DNA of 64,000 nucleotides from Eledone cirrhosa. Its lineage: Eukaryota. This document shows, piece after piece, positions 4,585-64,000 of this stretch. Position numbers and translations under genes: made by a program. Under the pieces are notes generated by a model, which was not told where the DNA came from, did not search any database, and worked only from the letters and a program-made list of their open reading frames with translations. The stretch is taken from the NCBI GenBank assembly GCA_964016885.1, contig OZ024745.1, positions 97,216,001-97,280,000 of the forward strand, in the 5' to 3' direction. The stretch's first letter is position 1; the number at the start of each line of letters is the position of its first letter.

Positions 4585-4642
4585 CCGTCTGAAGAGATTC
4601 GGCTACCATAACTGATAGTTGTCAGCGAAATATGTATAACGG
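4585..4642 (+). ncRNA. Minimal type I hammerhead ribozyme in a ~250 bp insert (4441-4692) within (TA)n
   Basis: ccgt-CTGAAGA-[cggctacca/tgatagttg, base mismatched]-GAAA-tatgta-TA-acgg. Confidence 0.7.
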
Positions 4643-5005: not shown

Positions 5006-5254
5006 AAGGAGGGAGAGAGAGATTCATATACAAATATTTTAATCGTTCGGGGTTGAAAAATATTGAGCATTGCCGCTACCACCGCCACCCCATTATCATC
5101 ACCACTCTATAGATCACACACACGGACACATACACACATACTTGCACACATACTGTCACCTCTATCCAGCATGACGGACATTTTACACGAAATATACTAC
5201 AGCCTTAAAATAATAGATGTATAAATCAATCCAAACGCATCTGTTTATTTTCAG

Positions 5255-5441
5255 AGTGTTATCATTATCGATGTACAAGGATCTCTTGGCCAGTGGTAGT
5301 TCCGATAACACGATCAAAGTATGGAGTTTACCAACAGGACAGTTGAAGCAAACACTTGTAGGTCACACAAAAAGCGTTTGGTGTGTCCACCTCTTTACCC
5401 ATAATATTGTAATCAGTGGCTCACATGACACGACCATCAGG
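5255..5441 (+). CDS. Internal exon of a WD40-repeat protein (F-box/WD-like beta-propeller)
   Basis: Acceptor tttattttcag ends at 5254 and donor AGG|gtaag starts at 5442. Translation VLSLSMYKDLLASGSSDNTIKVWSLPTGQLKQTLVGHTKSVWCVHLFTHNIVISGSHDTTIR has canonical WD40 motifs (LASGSxDxTIKVW, L.GH...V). Ends in phase 0. Confidence 0.92.
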
Positions 5442-5749
5442 GTAAGACTTAATAACAATATTTCAATTCTTCTATGCGGGGTTAGTTCAGCAGTTATATT
5501 CATTTGTACACGTGGGCGCACACGTGTGTGTGAATACATACATACGTACTTATATACATACACACATACATACATACATACATACATACATACATACATA
5601 CATACATACATACATACATACGTACATACATAGATAAATACATGCATACATGCATACACACATACATACATACATACATACATACATACATACATACATA
5701 CATACATACATACATACATACATACATACATACATACATACATACATAC

Positions 5750-12691: not shown

Positions 12692-15600
12692 AGTCAGTCA
12701 ACGGCGACTATTTATTAAATTTAAGATGAATACTATCTCCGACAGTAATGCCACAACTACAGTCATGTTGAATAACTGGATATTCTTCTAACTATATCCA
12801 CTGATTCGAATTCGTAGAGATATCCGACTATATACATAATTCATTTTACAAGGATTTGCTACAAAAAGCATGGCTGAATACATCAACAACAACGTTATCA
12901 GTGGAATACCGAAGAAAAACGAGGAAGGCAAACGAAATTTATTCAGTTGTAGCTACAGAAGAAACCGAAATTATAAATCGCATTTCTCTTGGACTTCCGA
13001 ACTTAATGATGATTTATTTAATTGTTATAAAATGGCAAAAAACAATCCCTCCATTGGCTATATGAATAGAATGAAACTACACAGGGACGAAATACACCCA
13101 GAGCTAAATTATTTCACAGCGAAACAATTACGCCAGCAAGCGACATTTGTTGAACATAAAAATAAGATAAATATTATTAATTGTAAGTCCCCCACAACAA
13201 ACATGGAATCAACAACACGTGCTACAAGTCGCCATGCTACTAGATTTCCTAACAGCCAGGTCGAACAGTGCCTTGAAACAACTATACCTGTAAGAAATGT
13301 GACACCACGTGTACCATCTAAGTCTACCTCGAATGCTGGGGAAAACACTATCGATAATTATAATAATCGAAGAAATTTGACAACACGTGTACCATCCGAG
13401 TCTACCTCGACTATTGTGGAAAACACTATTGATAATGATAATAATTAAAAGTATAAACAATTGAAGATTTCCCTCAACGAAATCTTCCAGAGAGAAATTA
13501 ATTCATGTATAAACATTTCTCTTGCTGAACGTATTAAAACAACAATATTTAATACGTGTTATTGACGAAATAGGGGGTGAATATTTACGACGGATAAAAA
13601 TCCCAACATTTTGGCAACGACAGTGAAGCATTATCTTGGTGATAGCAGAGATATTAACAAGAACAAAACAAGAACAAAACACCACCAAAAATCCCATCAT
13701 ATATAATTAAAATAGAAAAAAAGATTGCCGACCTACGAAAAAACATAGGATATGTGACAATGCTCCTTACATGTAAACGAACACAAAAAAACTTCACTCC
13801 TCACCAACAAAGAGTGAAAAATAAAATAGAGAAGATGTTTGGTAACAGTAGAACCAGAACTCTTCAATACAAGCTGATCACCCTCAAACAAAAATTGAGA
13901 GCTGTTAGCGAAAAACGCTGATACCTGAAGAAGGTAGATGACAGAACAGTGCTTAATAAAAGATTCAGACGAAAGCAAACATTAGGCTATAGAGATATGA
14001 AGGGCAAAATAATAAGTGTCACTGAGGCCCCATCCCAGAAAGACATAGATTCCTTTTGGAGAGAAATATGGGGTGAACAGAAGAATTTCAACCACGATGC
14101 AGTGTGGCTAAAAGAAATCCAAAAGAACTATTGCTCCTACACTACAACAAAAACATACGAAATAAGTGAGGGTACCCTTGAGACTGTGATAGGAAAACTC
14201 CAAGATAAGAAAACACCAGGAAGAGACATGATTGTCGGCTACTGGTACAAAAAACTGATATTCTATCGGATGTATCTTACCCACCTCTACCAACAAGTTC
14301 TTAAGGGAGATACACTTATACCAGAATGGTTGACATTAGCACAAACATTACTGGTCCCCAAGAACAAAGACACCCACCTGGCAAAAAACTACCGACCCAG
14401 TGCATGCCAGAACCTGGTGTATAAGATGTATACAGCCTGCCTGAACCTATTCCTCCAAGTTCACTGTGAAAATAATAACATCATCACAGATGAATAAGCA
14501 GCTGGAAAGAAAGGGGTTTGGTGATGTGCTGAACAACTCCTAATCAACAAAACTGCGATGTCGGAGGTGCGACAACTTAGGAGGAATATGACTACAGTCT
14601 GGCTGGACTACAGGAAAGCTTTCGATTCTGTTCCCTACTCTTGGATGATAGAGGCCCTCCAGCTTGCTAAAGTCCCAGATATTATTATCAGAGCCATGGT
14701 CTGAGTTCAAATCCTGCCGAGGTTAACTTTGCCTTTCATCCTTACGGGGTCGATAAAATAAAGTATCAGTAATACACTGGGATAATTGCTGGCCTTGTGT
14801 CAAGAGTAGAAACAATTATTATCAGAGTCATAGAGAAGCTGTCTTCTTCTTGGGCTACTATCCTAAAGTTAAAGACAGAGAAGGGGGACTCTTTTTTCAC
14901 TGATAAAATAAAATATCGCAGGGGCATATTTCAGGGAGATAGTCTCTCTGTGATATTATTCATCCTGTCATTAAACCCCTTGTCCTTTCTGCTCAAGAAA
15001 TGTGAAGGATATATCATTGGCTCACAGGAGGGCAGCAATACGAACCTAACCCATAATTTCTTTGTGGACGATCTGAAACTCTATGCCAAGAACATGGATG
15101 GGATGAAGAAAAATCTTGACATGGTTACAACATTCTCAAAGGATATAGGAATAGAGTTTGGCCAAGATAAATGTTCTTATATGACTGTAAAGCGGGGGAA
15201 AACAACAACCCAATCTAGCAACATTGTCATCAATGCTCTAACTGTTTCACCGATATCTGATGAGGACTGCTAAAGATACCTGCTACAAATGAGAACGTAT
15301 CCTATAATGGTATCTGTAATAAGGAACGCGTAACCAGGGAATACCTCACCCGATTAAGAAAGATATGGTCATCGGAACTCTCTGCGCAAAACAAAACAGT
15401 GGCTCATAATGTGTTTGCTGTGCCTGTCCTAACACCAACGTTTGGAATACTCAATTGGACAATAGACGAAATCCGAGCGATTGATGTTAGAACTCGAAAA
15501 ATACTAAACAACACCGGAAACTTCCACATCAACAGTGACATAGACCGCCTTTACTTGAAACGTAAGCAGGGAGGTAGAGGCCTAACATCAGTCCAGAGAG

Positions 15601-16848
15601 CATTTGAATGTCGCATCATATCCCTCCGACAACATCCGAACTTCAAAGCGTAGGAGCCCGTCTCTCGAGCAAGTCTATCTGCATGAAACAGATAAGATCA
15701 TGAGAGTTGGGAAGGAACTCCTCGAGAGATATTGCCTGTGTGATAATCAAAAACTCACACCCAGGGATGTCGCTCAGCAGTATCGCAGTGAATCCATGGA
15801 TGAAAAACTGCATGCTTGTCAGCAAAAAAAATCATGCATGGATATGTTGCCAGGAAGTTCCAGAGTGAGAGTAATATAGATAAAGAAAGTAGTCTATCTT
15901 GGACCAACAACCGCCATATTGGCTTCCACTTTGAAGGATACGCTTTTGCAATCCAAGAACAGGAAATTAACACGAAATACCTGATTCACAAAAGAGATAG
16001 GGATGCAGGCAAAACACCTAGATGTATAACAAGTGCAGACTGCAAAATTAACATCGAAGATGTCACCCATGTCATAAGCAGCTGTCCAAAGATGTCATCG
16101 CGGTACTATCTACCTATGAGGCATGATGTAGTGGCCAAAACACTGTACAATGCAATCCGTAGAAAAGGTAGTCCCGATAATAAACACATTAAAAGCTACA
16201 GCAATGTGGAAGACATACATATACATAATATGAAAGAGTACTGGTGGAATGTTCCAGTAAAAACCCCAATAAAATGCAGGCATAACAGACCAGATATTAT
16301 GATATGGGACAGGGTAAAGAAGGCATGCACAGTAGTGGAAATTAGCTGCCCAGCAGATGCCAATATAATATCAAAGGTTAGCGAAAAGGAGATTATTTAT
16401 GCAGAACTGGTGAGAAATCTGCAGATACTCCACCCTGATTATACCTTCAGATTTATGCCTGTGATTATTGGGGAACTGGGATATGTTAGTATCTGCCTCA
16501 ATACAAATCTTGAGAAGCTGGGCTTCACAGGAACAAAAAGAACACAACTAGTTAGGAAACTACAAGTACAATCCATTAATGGAACAGTAAAAATATGTAA
16601 AACATTCCAAAGATTTTGCATCTAATAATTGCATATACACATGTACAGATACTAAGCATATACACATACACACATACAACACAAAACATGCACATCCACA
16701 AATACAATAACATCCATATCTACACATGCATGCCTACATACATATCTACCTAGTTGATGTTGTGTAAATGAGAGAGTCTTGTGTCTATGTTAGAAACCGA
16801 CTCTCTCTCTCTATTGCTAAAACTTTGTGAAATTATAAAACTAGAAGA
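12692..16848 (+). mobile_element. Near full-length degenerate R4/Dong-clade non-LTR retrotransposon (RT + CCHC + restriction-like endonuclease)
   Basis: Fragmented ORFs 12870-16625: Myb-like N-terminus (WTSELNDDLFNCY..GYMNRM), KTPGRD, NYRP, WLDYRKAFDSVP, GIFQGDSLS, FVDDLKLY, RLYLKRKQGGRGL, HVISSC, RHD, RPDI..EISCP. Flanked by (TACA)n on both sides; stops and frameshifts present. Confidence 0.9.
14698..14814 (+). mobile_element. 5'-truncated Nin-like SINE inserted in the Dong RT, 17-bp TSD
   Basis: TSD attattatcagag(c/t)cat at 14681-14697 and 14815-14831. Confidence 0.9.
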
Positions 16849-18943: not shown

Positions 18944-18945
18944 GC

Positions 18946-19510
18946 AAAAGTTCTATTTAAAGTTGTTGGGATACAGCAAGTAAATATTTTTATAACTGAT
19001 ATAAAGCACTCGACAAGTTTTTGGAGTAGATATACGATATTAATAAATGGAAACTATATTTATAAAGCCATATTTATTTCATTATACATATTTCAGGGAT
19101 ACCACATTAAATTATGGTATGCCTTCATCAGACAAAATACAATATATAACAGTTTTACAAATAGCTTTGAGGTACCCTTTTAAAATGCAACCATTACTTT
19201 TGGAGGCTGTCTGGATAGTGATTTGTTTATATTATTTTAATAAGTCATAGTGTTAAGCACAATTAGAAAAAGACGGAGAGAAAGAAATAGAAAAAAGACG
19301 ACTTATTAAAATAATATAAACAAATCACTATCCAGACAGCCTCCAAAAGTAATGGTTGCATTTTAAAAGGGTACGTCAAAGCTATTTGTAAAACTGTTAT
19401 ATATTGTATTTTGTCTGATGAAGGCATACCATAATTTAATGTGGTATCCCTGAAATATGTATAATGAAATAAATATGGTTTTATAAATATAGTTTCCATT
19501 TATTAATATC

Positions 19511-19515
<5 letters not shown>
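18946..19515. mobile_element. Fold-back HHR element: ~215 bp inverted arms (19031-19246 / 19300-19515) plus ~85-nt tail on the left
   Basis: Near-perfect inverted repeat (explains the twin METIFIKP ORFs); HHR in each arm (19076-19138 -, 19408-19470 +); (TA)n flanks. Confidence 0.85.
19408..19470 (+). ncRNA. Minimal type I hammerhead ribozyme (mirror copy 19076-19138 on -)
   Basis: attttgt-CTGATGA-aggcataccata-atttaa-tgtggtatccct-GAAA-tatgta-TA-atgaaat. Confidence 0.82.
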
Positions 19516-19564
<49 letters not shown>

Positions 19565-32410: not shown

Positions 32411-33302
32411 TAAACGGAAAAAATGAACGAAATTTCATTTCTCACTCTTAGTACGGCTGTTACTTAAATATAAGTATGTAGACGTACATACATATATGTA
32501 TATAGACGTACAGTAGTATGTATATATATATATATATACATGCATGCACACATATATATATATGTACGTATGGATTCACCGAACATTTATTATAATGCTC
32601 GGTATGTTTGTAAACAAACGTTGCTGAAGATAGCTAATAAGCTTGAAACTAGTACAGCGTTCCTTTGTCAGTGTTGAACAAATGAGCAACGATGGTTGCT
32701 AGACACTGTACGGCTTAATTCGGGATGTTTGTTTACAAACACACCGAGCATTATAATAAATGTTCGGTGAATCCATACGTACATATATATATGTGTGCAT
32801 GTATCTATATATATATACATACTACTGTACGTCTGTATACATATATGTATGTACGTATACATACTTATATTTAAGTAACAGCCGTACTAAGAGTGAGAAA
32901 TGAAATTTCGTTTCATTTTTTCCGTTTATCGTTTTCGGTACCACGGCCGATTAACTCACTCGATATGCAAATTAGGTTGCTCAGCCGTTAATATGCATAA
33001 GGAAAGTATATACTTTCAGACGTTCAACCATCTGGCAGGAAGGTATACGTTGCTGACGATAGCTAATAAGCTTGAAACTAGTACAGCGTTCCTTTGTCAG
33101 TGTTGAACAAATGAGCAACGATGGTTGCTAGACACTGTACGGCTTAATTCGGGATGTTTGTTTACAAACACACCGAGCATTATAATAAATGTTCGGTGAA
33201 TCCATACGTACATATATATATATATGTGTGCATGTATGTATATATATATGCATACTACTGTACGTCTGTATACATATATGTATGTACGTATACATACTTA
33301 TA
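32411..33302 (+). mobile_element. Retrozyme-like insertion: inverted leader (32411-32618) plus ~1.6 tandem units (429 bp), two HHRs
   Basis: HHRs 32619-32659 and 33048-33088: cgttg-CTGA(A/C)GA-tagct-aata-agctt-GAAA-ctag-TA-cagcg. Confidence 0.85.
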
Positions 33303-34566: not shown

Positions 34567-35100
<534 letters not shown>

Positions 35101-36756: not shown

Positions 36757-37533
36757 TTTCTGAATTTGTTTAGCAAGATTCTTTATCTGAAATCGTGTGT
36801 TGAAACCGATATTGTTATACTTTGGGAGGGTCATGTTGCCAATAAGAAACACACGCACCAGTTGCTTTCACTTCAATTTATTATATATTTATAAATTTAT
36901 AAATTTATAAATTTATAAATTTCTGGTTGGTTGGTTGGTTCCACAACCAGATAGTTGTTTATATATAGTCATAGTTCTTTCGTCACACACTCTGTGACCT
37001 CTTCAGTGACTGGGGATTCCTTTCTTTGTTTCTGTGCCTCTCTTTTGTTCTGTCCTACGCCATTTTGTTTCTGTGTGTGTGTTGTGTGCTCAGTCTGCGC
37101 ATGCGCCACATCCGGGTGTCTGTGTGTGTTTATGTTCATTTATTTATTTGTTTATTTACATGTTACTGGTTGGTTGTTTGTTCTATGTGTGTGTTTTCAT
37201 TTTGTCCTTAATTGTAAGTTGTGATGTTGCTGTTCCACTCATATTTTCTATTTAATTTTGGTTGTAATTCTTTTATGTTTATTGCCTCTGTAATTTGTCT
37301 AAACATTGCGTCTTTTCTGTGTGTAGATTCTATTTTTATTTCTATGTTCTCTAATTTACCCTTGTGTTCTATCTTAGCATGTTGGTAGAGTACAGATGAT
37401 TCTTTATTATCTTGAAGGTCTCGCCAGTGTTCATTTATCCGTTCCCCTACACTACGAGCTGTCTCACCTATGTACACTATATTTTTGTCTCTACATTGTC
37501 CTTCAGTACATCTTATGCTATACACTACATTTC

Positions 37534-38860
37534 TAGACTAAAACTAACCCTTAAGGAACATATGTTCAAATTTAATGGAAAAACATATGCCCAAGAGGAA
37601 GGAGCAGCCATTGGTGTTAGCATTGCAGGCAACATAGCTAACTTATTCATGGTATGGTGGGACAGTAGACTTAAACTTAAACTTAAAGAACAATTAGAAG
37701 ACCCTTTAACCCTGATAATGTACTCCCGCTACGTAGATGATATAAACATCGTAGTTAAGACACCCCCACTAGAGAAGAGTCAGGAACTAGAGAAAAACAC
37801 AATGGAAAGCATCCAGCAAATAGCAAACTCCATCCACCAGAGCATTAGAGTTACTATAGACTACCCAAGTAAACACCCCAACCATCGATTACCTGTACTA
37901 GACACAGAGCTCTGGTTAGATACCATTAACAACACGAAACAAATCCTCCATTTCCATTATGCCAAACCCATGACTTCCAAACATCTGATCCACCGAAACT
38001 CGGCCATTTCGGACCATGCCAAAATCAACATACTAATTGCGGATTTGGTACGGGTGATGAGAAATGTGTCCCGCATGTGCAACCCCGAAGAACTAGAGAG
38101 ACACATACAACACTTTATCCACCGTATGCAGTTCTCTGGCTACAATCAGAGAGATAAAATCAGAGTGTATAGAGGAGCCAGAACCAAATGGGAAAAAATG
38201 GTAAATAATGACATAAATGGGACCTGCCCCTTGTATAGGAGCAAATTTTGGAATAGAATAGAAAGAACTAGGAACAAGGCTAATAGAATAAACTCATGGT
38301 ATGATAGCAATAAATACCAGAGTGTAATGTTCATCGATACAACCCCTAGAGGTGAATTAGCTTACAAATTTAGAAGGGCCCTAAATAAACATAAACTCAA
38401 TATTAAGATAGTAGAAAGACCAGGTACTTCCGTAAAAACACTTATTAGCAAGACATACCCTTTTCAAAGACCCTCATGTATAGATAAGAAATGTATAACC
38501 TGTAAAATAAGGCCCCATATTAACTGTAAAACTCGAAATATAGTGTATAGCATAAGATGTACTGAAGGACAATGTAGAGACAAAAATATAGTGTACATAG
38601 GTGAGACAGCTCGTAGTGTAGGGGAACGGATAAATGAACACTGGCGAGACTTTCAAGATAATAAAGAATCATCTGTACTCTACCAACATGCTAAGATAGA
38701 ACACAAGGGTAAATTAGAGAACATAGAAATAAAAATAGAATCTACACACAGAAAAGACGCAATGTTTAGACAAATTACAGAGGCAATAAACATAAAAGAA
38801 TTACAACCAAAATTAAATAGAAAATATGAGTGGAACAGCAACATCACAACTTACAATTAA
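37534..38860 (+). CDS. PLE reverse transcriptase (C-terminal half) + GIY-YIG endonuclease, uninterrupted
   Basis: QEEGAAIG..IANLFM, RYVDD, LPVLD, CxxC linker, NIVYSIRC...VYIGET.R...RINEH, QITEAINI..LNRKYE. The first ~40 aa of the called ORF (37412) come from the inverted arm. Confidence 0.92.
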
Positions 38861-39056: not shown

Positions 39057-39101
39057 AGTCACTGAAGAGGTCACAGAGTGTGTGACGAAAGAACTATGAC
39101 T
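39057..39101 (+). ncRNA. Minimal type I HHR in the PLE 3' UTR
   Basis: agtca-CTGAAGA-g-gtcaca-gagtg-tgtgac-GAAA-gaac-TA-tgact. Confidence 0.85.
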
Positions 39102-47180: not shown

Positions 47181-47646
47181 GAGAAGAAAGAGGAATACTG
47201 CGTGGTTGCACATGGGTTACATATTATAAAATTAGTCCCTCGTCAAGGATTTGCCAACCATCATTGGTATTCCATCGCATTAAAAATCATATACCTCAGG
47301 TTGGTGCGAGCAATAACTAAAAAAAGCTATTGGGACAAGTGAGTCGCGTAAAGCGAGTGAGACAAGTAAACAACATAGAAGGATAAAAGCAAACCGAAGA
47401 TAGGAAAAAAAACAAGCAACATGGTTATCCGGTCAGCATAATCTGGGTGAATTTCATGAGCGTTCAGAATACAGACCGTCCGACGTGAGTGAGATGTGAG
47501 CAAGAAAGGACCCCACTACCAACGAAACGGGAGGAAGTGAGAAGGGGAGAAACAGAGAGTGAGTGAGGGGAAGTGCGAGGAAGAGGTCAGTCGAGAGAAA
47601 GTGTAACTGGCAGAGGGGGCGAAAGAAGGTGTGTGTGTGAGTGTGT

Positions 47647-47862
47647 AAAAGTTCTATTTAAATTGTTGGGATACAACAAGCAAATATTTTTATAACTGAT
47701 ATAAAGCACTCAACAAATATTTGGAGTAAAAATACGATATTAACAAATGGAAACTATATTTATAAAACCATATTTATTTCATTATACATATTTCAAGGAC
47801 ACCAAGTTAAATTATGGTGCGCTTTCATCAGATAAAATATAATATAGAACAGTTTTATAAAT
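47647..47862 (-). mobile_element. Diverged copy of the 18946 family, HHR 47776-47838
   Basis: attttat-CTGATGA-aagcgcacca..tggtgtcctt-GAAA-tatgta-TA-atgaaat. Confidence 0.85.
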
Positions 47863-48633
47863 AAATATTGACATACTATATATATATATATATTTAATTG
47901 AATAGCTATTTGTGTCATTTAAAAAGAGCGAGGTAACTGAGGTAGTTGAAGAATTCATAGCATGTAAAGCAAGGAAATTAATTTGGTGAGCATACTAGAA
48001 ATTCTTTCCCACTTTTCTGTTTCCTCTCTCTTTAACATTTGAAACATATAAGCATCTATTAAATTATTACACCATCTCTATATTCAATGTTGTATTGAGT
48101 ACTTTTTATATTGATTGTTGCTGTTAAGAGACACCTTGAATTATATCAATTTTAGAGAAATTCTGTGGAATCAGTGTTGTTATTTTTGATATTAGGAAAG
48201 CTTTGACTCTGAATAGCAGGTGAAAACCTGTTAAAACTTCTCAAACCTGAACTCCATATTTCTTTCAGCTTTTGATCGGTGACTAAGTTATTCCGGGTTG
48301 AATCGGAGGTAACCACAGTAAGTAAGGTAATCAATACATAGCAGAGTATAAAAGTTTTAATATAGAAGTGCTTCTACAGGACAAGAACTGTTTCATTCGT
48401 GAGAACTCATCACGATGATTTCTCCTGATGATTTCTCACGAATGAAACAGTTCTAGTCCTGTAGAAGCTCTTCTATACATATATATATATATATAGCCTG
48501 TTCCGTATAACCATGACCAATACGAGCTGAGGATCAGACAAAGTTGGAATTCCTCTTATTAATATAATCTTCTATACACAATCATACACACCCGTGTATA
48601 TTTATCTATCTCTCTCTCTATATATATATATAT

Positions 48634-50880: not shown

Positions 50881-51400
50881 ATTGAGTTTATGTTGGTTGT
50901 ATACCAACACCTCAGTATGCAGGCTGGAACTACAGGGAGCCTCACCCCAGAAAGAATTCTATAGACTTCTGACTGAGGAATGCTCTCAGAACTGACCAAT
51001 GGGAAGTTTGACACTTTTTTTGTTATTTTGTTCCTTTAACACCTTGTCCCTTCTACCATTTTATCAATTTTTTAAGCTAACTCCAACAATAACAACACTT
51101 AGAATGAGGAATGTTCTAATAACTGACCAATGAGAGGAGAAGAGGACCTTTGACATTGAAATTCGTTTGTTTAAATTCATATGATGCCAGTTCCTCAGTG
51201 AAATAACAACCCAACCAGGAACTGGGCATATCAGAGTATTGACAATATTATACACCTCAACAACATATGTACTTGTCTATACCATACTAATTCAAACTGC
51301 CTGAAGAGGTCACAGCCAAAGATGGCTGTCACTGAAATATATATAGCAGTAATAAACGAAGCTAAATTTTTATCATTTGACTTTTTATTTAACTTTATTT
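50881..51400 (+). mobile_element. HHR element in (TA)n with inverted-tail leader; HHR 51296-51350
   Basis: First ~45 nt are the reverse complement of tail 4360-4405; actgc-CTGAAGA-[11-position stem II]-GAAA-tatata-TA-gcagt. Confidence 0.85.
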
Positions 51401-59984: not shown

Positions 59985-62900
59985 AGATAGATAGATAGAT
60001 AGATAGATTTCTTTATTTGCCACAAGGGCGCACAAGAAAAGGGGACAATACAAAGACATGCAGTCGTGTAAAAAATATAAACACAAACAATTACAACAAT
60101 CGAAATCAACAATAGGGGGTAAGTGCCACAAATGGGATGTTTAATACCCCGTCGATAGAACAACCCTCAACTGCAGGAGCATGTTGTGAAAGTGCTCCTT
60201 TCTTCCTTTTGCTCTCTTCTTCAACCTACAGGCTTATAAACAGAGAAGGCCCAATCACTCGGGCCATTTTCGCTTCATTCACCCACCTTTCAGTAAATTT
60301 ACTGGGGTGCAGTGCCTCTCTCTCCACTGATTCTCCTTCTAAAGTGATACTTAAAGAAGGGAATCAATTGTTGTCCGGAGAGAAAGGCATCTGTCCCCAG
60401 TCCTCTCAATCTCGTCCACCATATAACTTCTTTCACCATAGCCACCGTACAGAGGAAAACCGCCTCTCTTTCGTTTTTGAAAGAGGCTGGCGGTTTGATC
60501 CTTACTATGGACTCGGCAGTCAACTGGATTTGTCGCGACAGCAGTTGTTCTGCATAGTTCCACAGGTCGGTTACGCCCGGGTAGTGTACAATTGCGTGCA
60601 GGACTGTTTCAATGTCCTGCGCGCATCTTGGACACGTCCTCTTGGAAGGATCCCTGCCGGGGCGTCCGTGCCTGTAGATCTTGTCACGAACCGGTAGAGC
60701 TCCTCGGTAGCACTGCTAGGTCAGGGACCTCTGGAAGTTGTCCATAGGTCCCGGGCGGAAAGTCCTACCAAACAGACTAGTGAGCTCGTCGTCTTCGACG
60801 CCTAGAGTCTCCCCGAGCATGTCGTCGCACTTGCAAAGTACTAACCCTCTATAGAATGTCGAAGTGGAGTCTCCACAGATTGCTGCGCCCGCTTGCCATA
60901 GGACTGTGAGCGCCTGGGCGCATTCAATGTGCCAGGCGCCCATCTTCTTCGGTCTTCGCTTGACCCAGAACTGCAGCTCCGTCAGCGAGACAAGTTGTGG
61001 GATGGCCTGTCTCACAAACGGTGCCCACACCGGTTGGTCAGTGAGGAATACCTGGAGATGCTGTAGCCTCAGCGCATGTTTGCGCATCATTAGCCACGGC
61101 ATGCCCATCCCTCCGTTGGAAGGGTGTTGACAGCAGACGGATATCCTAACCAGTGGAGCCTGCTTCTTCCACAGGAACTGGGAGAGCATGCGTTCCATCT
61201 CGGTGGGTTGTTCACGGGGACAAGGCACGATAGTCAAGCGGGAGAGTAGATGACGGACGCTATGAAATTTTTCGCCACCTCCGCTCTACCTTTCAAGGAG
61301 AGTTTGCACTCTGCCCACTTCTGGGTGAGCGCAAACGCCTTGGCCGTGACCTCGTTCCAGTTTTTCCCCACTTGGAGGTCTGGACCGAACCAGATCCCGA
61401 GCAATTTCACCGGTCCGTCCTTCCAGCGGTGTCGGACGTCATCGGTTTGCCTCTCCACGTACCGAGTTGCAAACCGACAGACTTGTCCGGGTTTAGTTTT
61501 GCTCCCGTCAGCGTTTCGTATTCTTTCAGTAAGTTGCCGATCACCCCGATTTCCGAGGTTCTCGACACCAATACTGTCACGTCGTCGGCATAAGCCGACG
61601 CCGCTTTGCGCAGTCCCGGTTCTAGAGGGATGCCCTTCAACAGCTCCAATTTCCGCAGTAGTGGCTCTAGAGTCAATACATACAGAATGGAGGAGAGAGG
61701 GCACCCCTGTCGAATGGAACGCGTGATTGCGAACGGCTCCGATAGGTAGCCGTTCACCTTGACCCTCGAGCAGATGCTGGTGTGCACCGCCTCGATCCAG
61801 CCTCTGAAAACGGGACCGAAACCGGCCGCCTTGAGAACCGCTTCCAAGTATCGATGGTCGACCCTATCGAATGCCTTAGACTGATCTAAATTGATCAGAG
61901 CCCCACCGAAGCCGGGTTTACTACCCACCCTCTCTATAATGTATCGCATGAGGTGGAGGTTGTCGTGTATGGACCTGGTCGGGTTTGCACACGTTTGCGC
62001 TTTCCCTACCAGGTTCTCGACGACAAGCGCCAACCTCGTCGCTAGCACCTTGGCCAAAATCTTTAACTCTGTGTTCAGCAAAGTTATGGGCCTGAAGTTG
62101 TTAATTTCGTCCCCCTTGTTCTCGTCTTTCCTGATCAGCGTTACTATGCCCTTGCCTGCAGAACTGGGAATTCTCTGCTGCCAATTGCAGTAGACGGCTT
62201 CGAGGACGCCAGAGAACAAGTCCAGCATGCCTATGTAAAACTCATAGGGTAGACCATCTAGACCGCGTGACTTGCGTCTCCCGCAGCGGCCCAGAGCGTC
62301 CCGTATCTCAGTGTCCGTGATCGGTCTTTCGCAGAACTCGGCGTCCGTAATCGAGACTCGGCAGGCCGTCGAGGTATGAACTAAAGTCCATTGCCCCGTT
62401 CGGCTCACCGTCATTCTGCTCAAACAGTCGCACAAAGTACTGCTGAAAGGCCGCGCACATTTGCTTGGGGTCAAGTAGTACGCGTCCGTTTTGGTTTTTC
62501 AAAGACCGAATCGTGGACTTGTTGCCACTTTTTGCCTCCGCCACTCGGGCCCATCTGACAGCTTTCGCTCCTTCGTTTCCTAGAGCACGTGTTTTGCTTC
62601 TGACCACGCAGCCTTCGTGTTTCGCATCGAAGAACTGGTCCAGTGCCGTTCTCGACGCTAACACCCTAGCTGCGTTGCCACTTCTAAGTGCCTCCTCTAC
62701 CTTGGCTACTAGTTCTCTTTCTATTTTGTTTTTCTCTAAGGCTAACTCTCTGCTAAACCCTATCGATTCTACTCTAATTGCTTTCTTGAGAGAGTACCAC
62801 CATCTATTGTTGACGATGGCTCCCGTTAACTGTTGCTTGACTAGTCTACTTATCCGTTCACTGTAAGCTTTACGTGCCGGCAACGACACGTTCAGCTTCC

Positions 62901-64000
62901 AGTATCCGGGTCCCTGTCTATGTGTTCTATCACGGTTGACTATGGAGACGACTAATTTGTGAACTGAATAGGCAACCGTGTGCATTCGTGGACAGCTTAA
63001 CATCTCCTTGTCCCTTTCTTTAATGAAGAGCCTATCTAAATACGATCTAGATGTCCCGCTGCGGTTTGCCCACGTCCACTGTGGTGCAGTCGGGAAATCC
63101 AGTCGATACCTATCGGCCAGTTGGAATTGGCCGATTAAAGTTTTGAGGCTGTTGTACCCTCCTCTATTGGGACATGCTCCCACATAGTCCCATCGTGCAT
63201 CTAGGATATCATTCCAGTCCCCCACTAAAAGTAAGGAGCGAGACGTTCCCATAAAAGACTCTAGACGCTTAAAGAAGTTTGGCCGTGATTGCGATTGCCC
63301 GGTCGGGGCATAAACGGCCACCAGTCTGAAGGCTCCACCTCCAATACTGTTCACGTCTAGGACTACCAGTCTACCCTCCGGGTCCAAGTGTACTTGCTGT
63401 ACTTCGACGTCCAGGTTCTTCCGAAACATGACAGTCACTCCCCCGCCACCTCCTGGCTGACAGAGAGATGCGTAGATCTCAAAGTCGTCGAAGATGGGGG
63501 TTAGTTGCTGCCTGTTGTGGATCCTGGATTCGGTGATGGCTATCACATCCATACCGTGTGACCTAAGGTCGTTTAAAAGTTGGCCCTGTTTCCAGGGCAT
63601 CCCTAGGCCACGCACATTCACGCTTCCAAGTCGTAAACTAGCCATGTTGGTGAAAAAGAGTTGGAGAAAAAGGACGAAAAGATGCACTTACATTTTCGTT
63701 TCCTGGAGATCGGGTTGTTCAATCTCCATTTGGGTGCTGGAGAGGGTGTTGGGTGGGGTGGGGCAACATTTTAACAGGATGCGGTTGATGGGTTTCTGGC
63801 AGGGGTTGTCCACGTCCTGCGAAAATTTATTTTTCAGGTCACTATAGGTCTTCCTAGAAACCCTTATAAGTTTATGGTGTGGAGACGATTCTGCCTTGAC
63901 GAAATATTTGCCCTCCGTCTACACTTTGGGGTTTTGGGAGATGACCTCCATCAAACTCTTGTTGTTTGTGTTGATGTATGCGTATTGTTGTTTGTGTTTT
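59985..64000 (-). mobile_element. Tx1/L1-clade non-LTR retrotransposon (end of ORF1, frameshifted APE-RT ORF2, 3' UTR, (TCTA)n tail); runs off the window
   Basis: ORF2 ATG at 63645: NVRGL, AITE, VYAP, GDWN, SYLDR, GPGYWKLN, GLDGLPYEFY, NFRPITLLN, DQSKAFDRVDH, RQGCPLS, YADD, GGMGMP. AATAAA then (tcta)n at ~60010. Confidence 0.93.

Follow-up and report, generated by a model that had tools for sequence, protein, structure and literature searches.

Pairing of stem II and its wobble steps in a hammerhead motif of a Penelope-like retrotransposon in Eledone cirrhosa

The window analyzed in this study is a stretch of 64,000 nucleotides of the genome of Eledone cirrhosa (contig OZ024745.1, positions 97,216,001 to 97,280,000), and the genome searched comprises 3.0 Gb in 1,796 contigs and is rich in TA repeats. 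Three copies of the 3' part of a retrotransposon, here referred to as copies A, B and C, each possess a hammerhead motif. Copies B and C, which form an inverted repeat of 220 nt with 99% identity, are one inverted insertion in TA repeats. The preliminary description of this DNA covered copies A and B, to which copy C is added here. The positions of the three copies and of the parts of copy A are listed below.

47644..47876, minus strand: copy A, the 3' end, truncated on its 5' side and made up of the pseudo-LTR and its tail, of an element assigned to the Hydra clade of Penelope-like elements, between a TA run and a CA run
47832..47839, minus strand: copy A, 5' strand of hammerhead stem I, 8 pairs with 47775-47782, 97% of alignment cells paired
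47825..47831, minus strand: copy A, catalytic core C3-A9 (CUGAUGA), matching in sequence the consensus given in PMC4209133
47815..47824, minus strand: copy A, 5' arm of stem II, with pair 2 at 47823, the mismatched C at 47821, pair 5 at 47820 and pair 6 at 47819
47795..47804, minus strand: copy A, 3' arm of stem II, with pair 6 at 47800, pair 5 at 47799, the mismatched C at 47798 and pair 2 at 47796
47784..47794, minus strand: copy A, core G12-A14 and the helix III segment, whose 8-nt self-complementary part (47784-47791) is predicted to pair between molecules
47782..47783, minus strand: copy A, predicted cleavage site 3' of A17 (47783), triplet AUA, placed by hammerhead numbering
47775..47782, minus strand: copy A, 3' strand of stem I, from the pairing in the alignment
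47706..47727, minus strand: copy A, small hairpin that directly follows the shorter of the two end points of the element; its motif is found from +50 to +69, counted from the cleavage site, in 135 matches
19300..19519, plus strand: copy B, an inverted, tail-less partner, with its core from 19415 and its stem II arms at 19422-19431 and 19442-19451
18945..19299, minus strand: copy C, of the same subfamily as copy B, with tail, its core from 19131

The motif possesses a stem I of 8 pairs, a stem II of 9 pairs plus a C.C mismatch and, for helix III, an 8-nt self-complementary segment. The core CUGANGA ... GAAA ... NUH is present in the window copies, with AUA as the triplet, and an extra U precedes GAAA. 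As judged from its sequence, the motif fits a minimal type I hammerhead of the dimer type (PMC4209133), located in the pseudo-LTR and predicted to cut. The self-duplex of helix III is at -2.2 kcal/mol, with 6 pairs in the optimal duplex, and the self-duplexes of the helix III variants of other families range from -3.2 to -10.5, the alternating shape being imposed by the second search pattern described below. Compared with shuffles, the fold of a single copy is only modestly better (z of -1.6 and -2.0). An Rfam search of 47700-47870 at E<=10 gave no hammerhead match, and no hammerhead family was among the best 150 of the 248 Rfam matches of the whole window, where microsatellite-driven miRNA models dominate. 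Because minimal variants fit the Rfam models poorly, this silence is not counted against the hammerhead.

The window contains more hammerheads that share this 8-nt self-complementary helix III but belong to other families, at 51301 (+), 4255 (-), 44889 (+), 53825 (+), 24523 (+), 4589 (+) and 34964 (+)/34869 (-). Position 4 in these motifs is mostly C.C; it is C.U at 34964/34869 and not clear at 4589. In addition, six small hammerheads with a short stem II, at 32624 (+), 33053 (+), 36403 (-), 48881, 49319 and 49759 (-), are partly in tandem with a spacing of about 430-440 nt and are thus retrozyme-like. A 5'-truncated Penelope-like element of another clade, with RT, a GIY-YIG-type end and an inverted partner, is at 37400-38860 (+), and the hammerhead-like cores of the other-clade element at 39062 (+), 37006 (-) and 47041 (-) have a short canonical stem II without C.C. 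The window also contains a LINE with AP endonuclease and RT (Pfam PF03372 and PF00078) that is broken into several frames at 60116-63687 (-), a broken non-LTR element at 12840-16625 (+) that has RT and an end judged by eye to be a restriction-like endonuclease, and a likely host exon with WD40 repeats at 5217-5633 (+). The elements would lie in an intron should the WD40 gene extend across the window.

A 206-nt query from copy A found 40 genome places at 98-100%, and DNA searches with copies A and C gave 40 scored places each at 97-100%. In the full-length copy L061, an inverted partner is followed by a direct repeat of 823 nt, the ORF, a long 3' region, the second repeat and (TA)n. Its ORF starts just behind the hammerhead-bearing repeat, and the second repeat lies 4.2 kb on. 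The layout of L061 and L062 is thus an inverted pseudo-LTR, a direct pseudo-LTR, the ORF and a 3' pseudo-LTR ending in (TA)n, and L062 holds an open frame of 674 amino acid residues. The element ORF contains RWR at 46, DKT at 126 and CxCX5C at 609, while CxxC and CxH are read in another frame of the frameshifted copies L062 and L063. By eye, the ORF with its C-terminal GIY-YIG-type endonuclease region follows the published Hydra alignment and contains no CCHH; a Pfam search of the ORF gave no match at E<=0.1. Similar to Hydra-clade elements, the insertions have TA flanks, pseudo-LTRs and an inverted truncated partner. Given that the RWR, DKT, CxCX5C, CxxC and CxH motifs match the clade as described in PMC8557442, the source element is assigned on sequence motifs to the Hydra clade of Penelope-like elements. 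The ends of the copies fall into two classes, 45-59 nt (112 of 238) and 135-149 nt (111 of 238) behind the predicted cut site, which are the tail signature of Penelope-like elements. Twin small hairpins were observed just behind both element end points, at 47727-47706 (-), at 19027-19006 (-) and at about 5935-5915 of L061, and the second of the twins sits right before the start of the ORF. A Naiad element, the first guess, was dropped as the endonuclease is C-terminal, and so was a non-LTR retrozyme, which would consist of non-coding tandem monomers with a hammerhead; the copies are truncated ends of a coding element instead.

Both pairs of stem II arms that the preliminary description had quoted, for the copies at 19408 and 47776, are present in the window sequence, and the changes it had read from them were recovered. 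Pair 2 is A-U in copy A and G-C in copy B, pair 6 is C-G in copy A and U-A in copy B, and pair 5 is G.U in copy A and A-U in copy B. The catalytic core and the C.C at position 4 are identical in copies A and B, as it had also stated, and position 4 is C.C in all three window copies. Beyond its list, stem I shows a one-sided A-U/G.U change between copies. The alignment of copies A and C has 22 differences over 221 columns (90% identical), and 5 of these differences fall within the 18 paired positions of stem II. When five random transitions were placed in 18 paired positions, all nine pairs remained intact in 10% of trials, and they did so with at least two double changes in 3% of trials. Thus, the two window copies alone are modest evidence for kept pairing, suggestive and not decisive. 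The earlier claim that RNA structure was under selection in the source elements is supported by the genome-wide set, but to call the two copies direct evidence for it was an overstatement.

The first genome search pattern held the core and helix III constant, together with the purine of pair 1 and the U that precedes GAAA, and left the rest of stem II free. It gave 23,989 genome matches (control, 0). A second pattern, which required a purine at core position 7, added 24,607 matches (control, 158). The two patterns do not overlap and together identify 48,000 or more hammerhead-like motifs with this type of helix III across the genome. Since the search patterns fixed them, the conservation of the core, the pair-1 purine, the U before GAAA and helix III is no independent evidence. 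Copies A and B and the first 100 of the 23,989 matches were aligned with MAFFT (102 rows, 76 distinct), and the covariation that the preliminary description had proposed to look for was found in this alignment. Of 1,519 cells, 96.5% were paired versus 90.7% in shuffles, none of the 500 shuffles being as high, and slid-register controls paired at 38-50%. Two-sided changes occurred at six of the nine stem II pairs. Two of the five whole-structure measures were not above the shuffles, namely double-change pairs (168/500) and further pair types (494/500). RNAalifold, unaided, recovered 8 pairs of stem II with a gap at position 4, where C.C is located, and did not recover stem I from the alignment; the changes in stem I were almost all one-sided, with A-U/G.U at pairs 1.2 and 1.3.

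Given that alignment cells are not independent events, the changes were further divided into inherited and private ones. Ten stem II haplotypes were common to at least two loci. They contained no A.C pair, and the two U.U found among them were at the open end (pairs 9-10) of one short-stemmed family. Of the private changes from a Watson-Crick pair, 22 of 29 broke pairing. The first tree was built from the flanks only, without stem II, and contained 79 of the 102 rows; the other 23, copy A included, were dropped for truncated flanks. On this tree, pairing was kept in 15 of 16 shared (inherited) events versus 8 of 22 private events (Fisher p=5.3e-4). Thus, the structure is kept in the self-copying lineages and lost in the inserted copies.

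The states of single pairs were counted among 12,486 close genome copies. At pair 2, G.U was found in 1,779 copies versus 67 with A.C, and at pair 5 in 1,307 versus 58. As an A.C of the sense strand is G.U on the other strand, the excess of G.U at both pairs suggests that the sense RNA is the molecule concerned. These large counts stem from a handful of amplification bursts, not from thousands of independent events. Compensatory substitution through G.U intermediates is known from rRNA. On the flank tree the states form a ladder, in which pair 5 passes from G-C through G.U to A-U, pair 6 then changes from C-G to U-A, and pair 2 finally passes from A-U through G.U to G-C; its direction was set by the midpoint root, and the pair-5 step depends on one row at the base of the tree. 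For pair 2, the subfamilies with A-U and with G-C flank the G.U subfamily on this tree, and the two nodes are each at 98. The G10.1-C11.1 register is G-C in copy B, G.U in an intermediate and A-U in copy A.

The G at pair 5 of copy A was present in 3 of the 30 closest genome copies, copy A counted, and the exact loop of copy A in 7 of the first 100 pair-5 G.U copies listed (hand count). A reading of this G as merely private was revised, as pair-5 G.U is an amplified state with 1,307 copies. Copy A itself may have inherited its G or acquired it privately.

Counter to the simple prediction, the raw counts at pair 6 show no excess of the wobble state (U.G 167 versus C.A 226). Among the loci with a partner, U.G was present in both copies of the insertion at 4 of 7, while C.A was shared at 0 of 8 (p=0.026), and two of the three unshared U.G loci pair with a partner from another subfamily. 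Moreover, by hand count, 39 of the first 100 U.G copies carry the loop of the small bracketing subfamily, compared with 4 of 100 with C.A and 2 of 100 among all copies. These observations favor a short-lived U.G source for pair 6. The case is weaker than those of pairs 2 and 5, since changes at position 4 are also common to both partners (8 pairs in the first 100, hand count) and since a second tree that included the pair-6 copies, with 113 of 136 rows (23 dropped for truncated flanks), was poorly resolved and could not place them.

In 132 distinct motifs from the window and two samples, which included several diverged families, 119 had C.C at position 4 and 2 had a pair there; pairing at positions 1-3 and 5-7 was seen in 123-130. 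Of the clusters with more than one locus, C.C was found in five of six and C.U in one, and a U.C haplotype at position 4 occurred at two loci of the sample. A base other than C on the 5' side of the mismatch was found at 2.3% (299 versus 12,486, with a slightly wider pattern), which is the level of decay. The first tree contained no shared changes at position 4, which is not significant alone, as pair 8 likewise had none. Two distant families adjoin Hydra ORF pieces of 46-65% identity to this ORF, a linkage by proximity. The C.C is not clade-wide, given that the hammerhead published for Hydra-1_Obim has none (PMC8557442). Literature searches on C-C mismatches in helix II and on octopus Penelope hammerheads, mostly at the level of listings, gave no description of such a mismatch.

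Among the matches of the second pattern, a sister lineage (L185-L189, L194, L195, L204, L206 and L207) has been amplified with C.A, G.A or A.A at pair 8, and its loop now forms 3-4 extra pairs. Constraint on the distal stem therefore does not act on every pair separately, and this lineage is a case of compensation at the level of the whole helix.

The anatomy of the element, the covariation, the contrast between inherited and private events, the retained C.C and the surplus of G.U at pairs 2 and 5 are best explained if stem II has been kept paired, through G.U steps, by selection on the sense-strand RNA of actively copying source elements, and we regard this as highly probable. Each source lineage would need a folded hammerhead to continue transposing. 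A single transition to G.U would be tolerated and amplified to hundreds or thousands of copies, and a second change would then restore a Watson-Crick pair, while inserted copies would decay freely in the meantime. The paths would run from G-C through G.U to A-U at pair 5, from C-G through U.G to U-A at pair 6 and from A-U through G.U to G-C at pair 2. Judging from the literature, the selected function is somewhat more likely than not to be the self-cleavage of tandem transcripts by two hammerheads paired through the self-complementary segment of helix III, probably with the help of the element's protein.

It is also possible, at a clearly lower probability, that the helix was selected as RNA for the binding of the element's protein or the positioning of reverse transcription, in which case the hammerhead would be catalytically weak or idle. 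Position 7 is the one free position of the hammerhead core. Across the amplified subfamilies it is U, C, A or G, as expected for kept catalysis, and helix III is self-complementary across families, as expected if dimer catalysis is kept; both argue against mere binding. For such a role speak the ends of the element, whose two classes cluster 45-55 and 135-145 nt behind the cut site and not at it, and the kept mismatch, which may resemble a protein site. Moreover, according to the results in PMC11167929, the PAc hammerhead of the anole element cleaves only when protein is present, insertion in vitro does not require this cleavage, and its cut site coincided with the end of no RNA read. Minimal hammerheads are described as poor cutters in vitro (PMC4209133).

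The stem might instead be kept by a mutational process and not by selection. Template switching or hairpin repair at the quasi-palindrome, during reverse transcription or replication, might copy one arm onto the other. In favor of this, each arm of stem II is an almost perfect inverted repeat of the other, and inversions arise constantly in these elements; in addition, a hand count of the first 100 non-C copies found 3 insertions whose two partners share a repaired G-C at position 4. Such a process would erase C.C and G.U, yet C.C is retained in most motifs and its 5' side changes at the level of decay only, and it predicts strand symmetry or a cDNA bias (A.C in the sense strand), while G.U of the sense strand dominates pairs 2 and 5. 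Repair is thus largely refuted and very improbable. Hardly any credence can be given to a phylogenetic accident, in which a few source elements with chance complementary changes were amplified: the 16 shared events on the tree, the two-copy chance of 3-10%, the raw counts of pair 6 and the lineage with the broken pair 8 speak for it, but the contrast of shared with private events, the low pairing of the slid registers and the same geometry in families whose ORF pieces are only 46-65% identical to this one speak against it.

Selection on the sense RNA may be read further. Tentatively, and with more doubt than conviction, the C.C three pairs from the core would be a required and so far undescribed functional site of these Hydra-type hammerheads, a docking point for the element's protein or a tertiary contact that enables dimer cutting, and would have been kept across families with proteins that are about half identical, and the approximately 48,000 dated copies would be a time-lapse of fitness. 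If this is true, copy numbers would give the relative fitness of the G.U, A.C and Watson-Crick states of a ribozyme.

PMC8557442 raises both options for the hammerheads of Penelope-like elements, that they help the element or that they merely ride along. That lineages which copy themselves maintain the pairing and dead copies lose it implies that the fold matters to the element. In addition, the ladder of subfamilies with its preserved wobble steps shows compensatory evolution in a clean and countable form, and with the fixed C.C there is a specific site to mutate. The element, the type of ribozyme, covariation in Penelope hammerheads (PMC4209133, PMC8557442) and the G.U route (PMC5381666) are already known. 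Modest additions to this are the ladder of preserved wobble states and the C.C that stays fixed, and the kind of element is unchanged by them.

Similar to the Hydra clade as described in PMC8557442, the element possesses RW[KR], DKT, the CxCX5C linker, CxxC, CxH and, at the C terminus, a GIY-YIG-type region, as well as (TA)n targets, a hammerhead near the 3' end and an inverted 5'-truncated partner. Different from that description, its direct repeats are spaced about 4.2 kb apart versus under 3 kb, its tail is about 80-90 nt versus 30-40 bp for Penelope-like elements in general, and it has tens of thousands of copies. Moreover, GIKF at residue 92 of the ORF matches GxKF, by motif only, while GxKF/Y is given as not conserved in the clade. 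Hydra-1_Obim, compared by eye only, belongs to a different family and has another hammerhead sequence (PMC8557442).

Compared with the minimal hammerheads described in PMC4209133, the hammerhead here adds one nucleotide on each side of the helix II base (R opposite U), which is also the case in several Hydra rows of File S2 of PMC8557442. The published G10.1-C11.1 (PMC4209133) is A-U in subfamily A. The 9-10 pairs of helix II in the hammerhead here, interrupted by a fixed internal C.C, and the 8 pairs of its stem I also differ from those minimal hammerheads. Similar to it, the dimer-cleaving variants from Penelope-like elements of Lunse, Weinberg and Breaker, as summarized in PMC6765202, have a reduced, palindromic stem III.

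No description of G-U intermediates in transposon subfamilies was found in the literature searched, mostly at the level of listings. Similar to the stem II pairs, Watson-Crick switches in the Bacillus terminators reported in PMC5381666 pass via G.U more than via A.C. Different from that case, the G.U intermediates of the element in E. cirrhosa survive as amplified, countable subfamilies in one genome.
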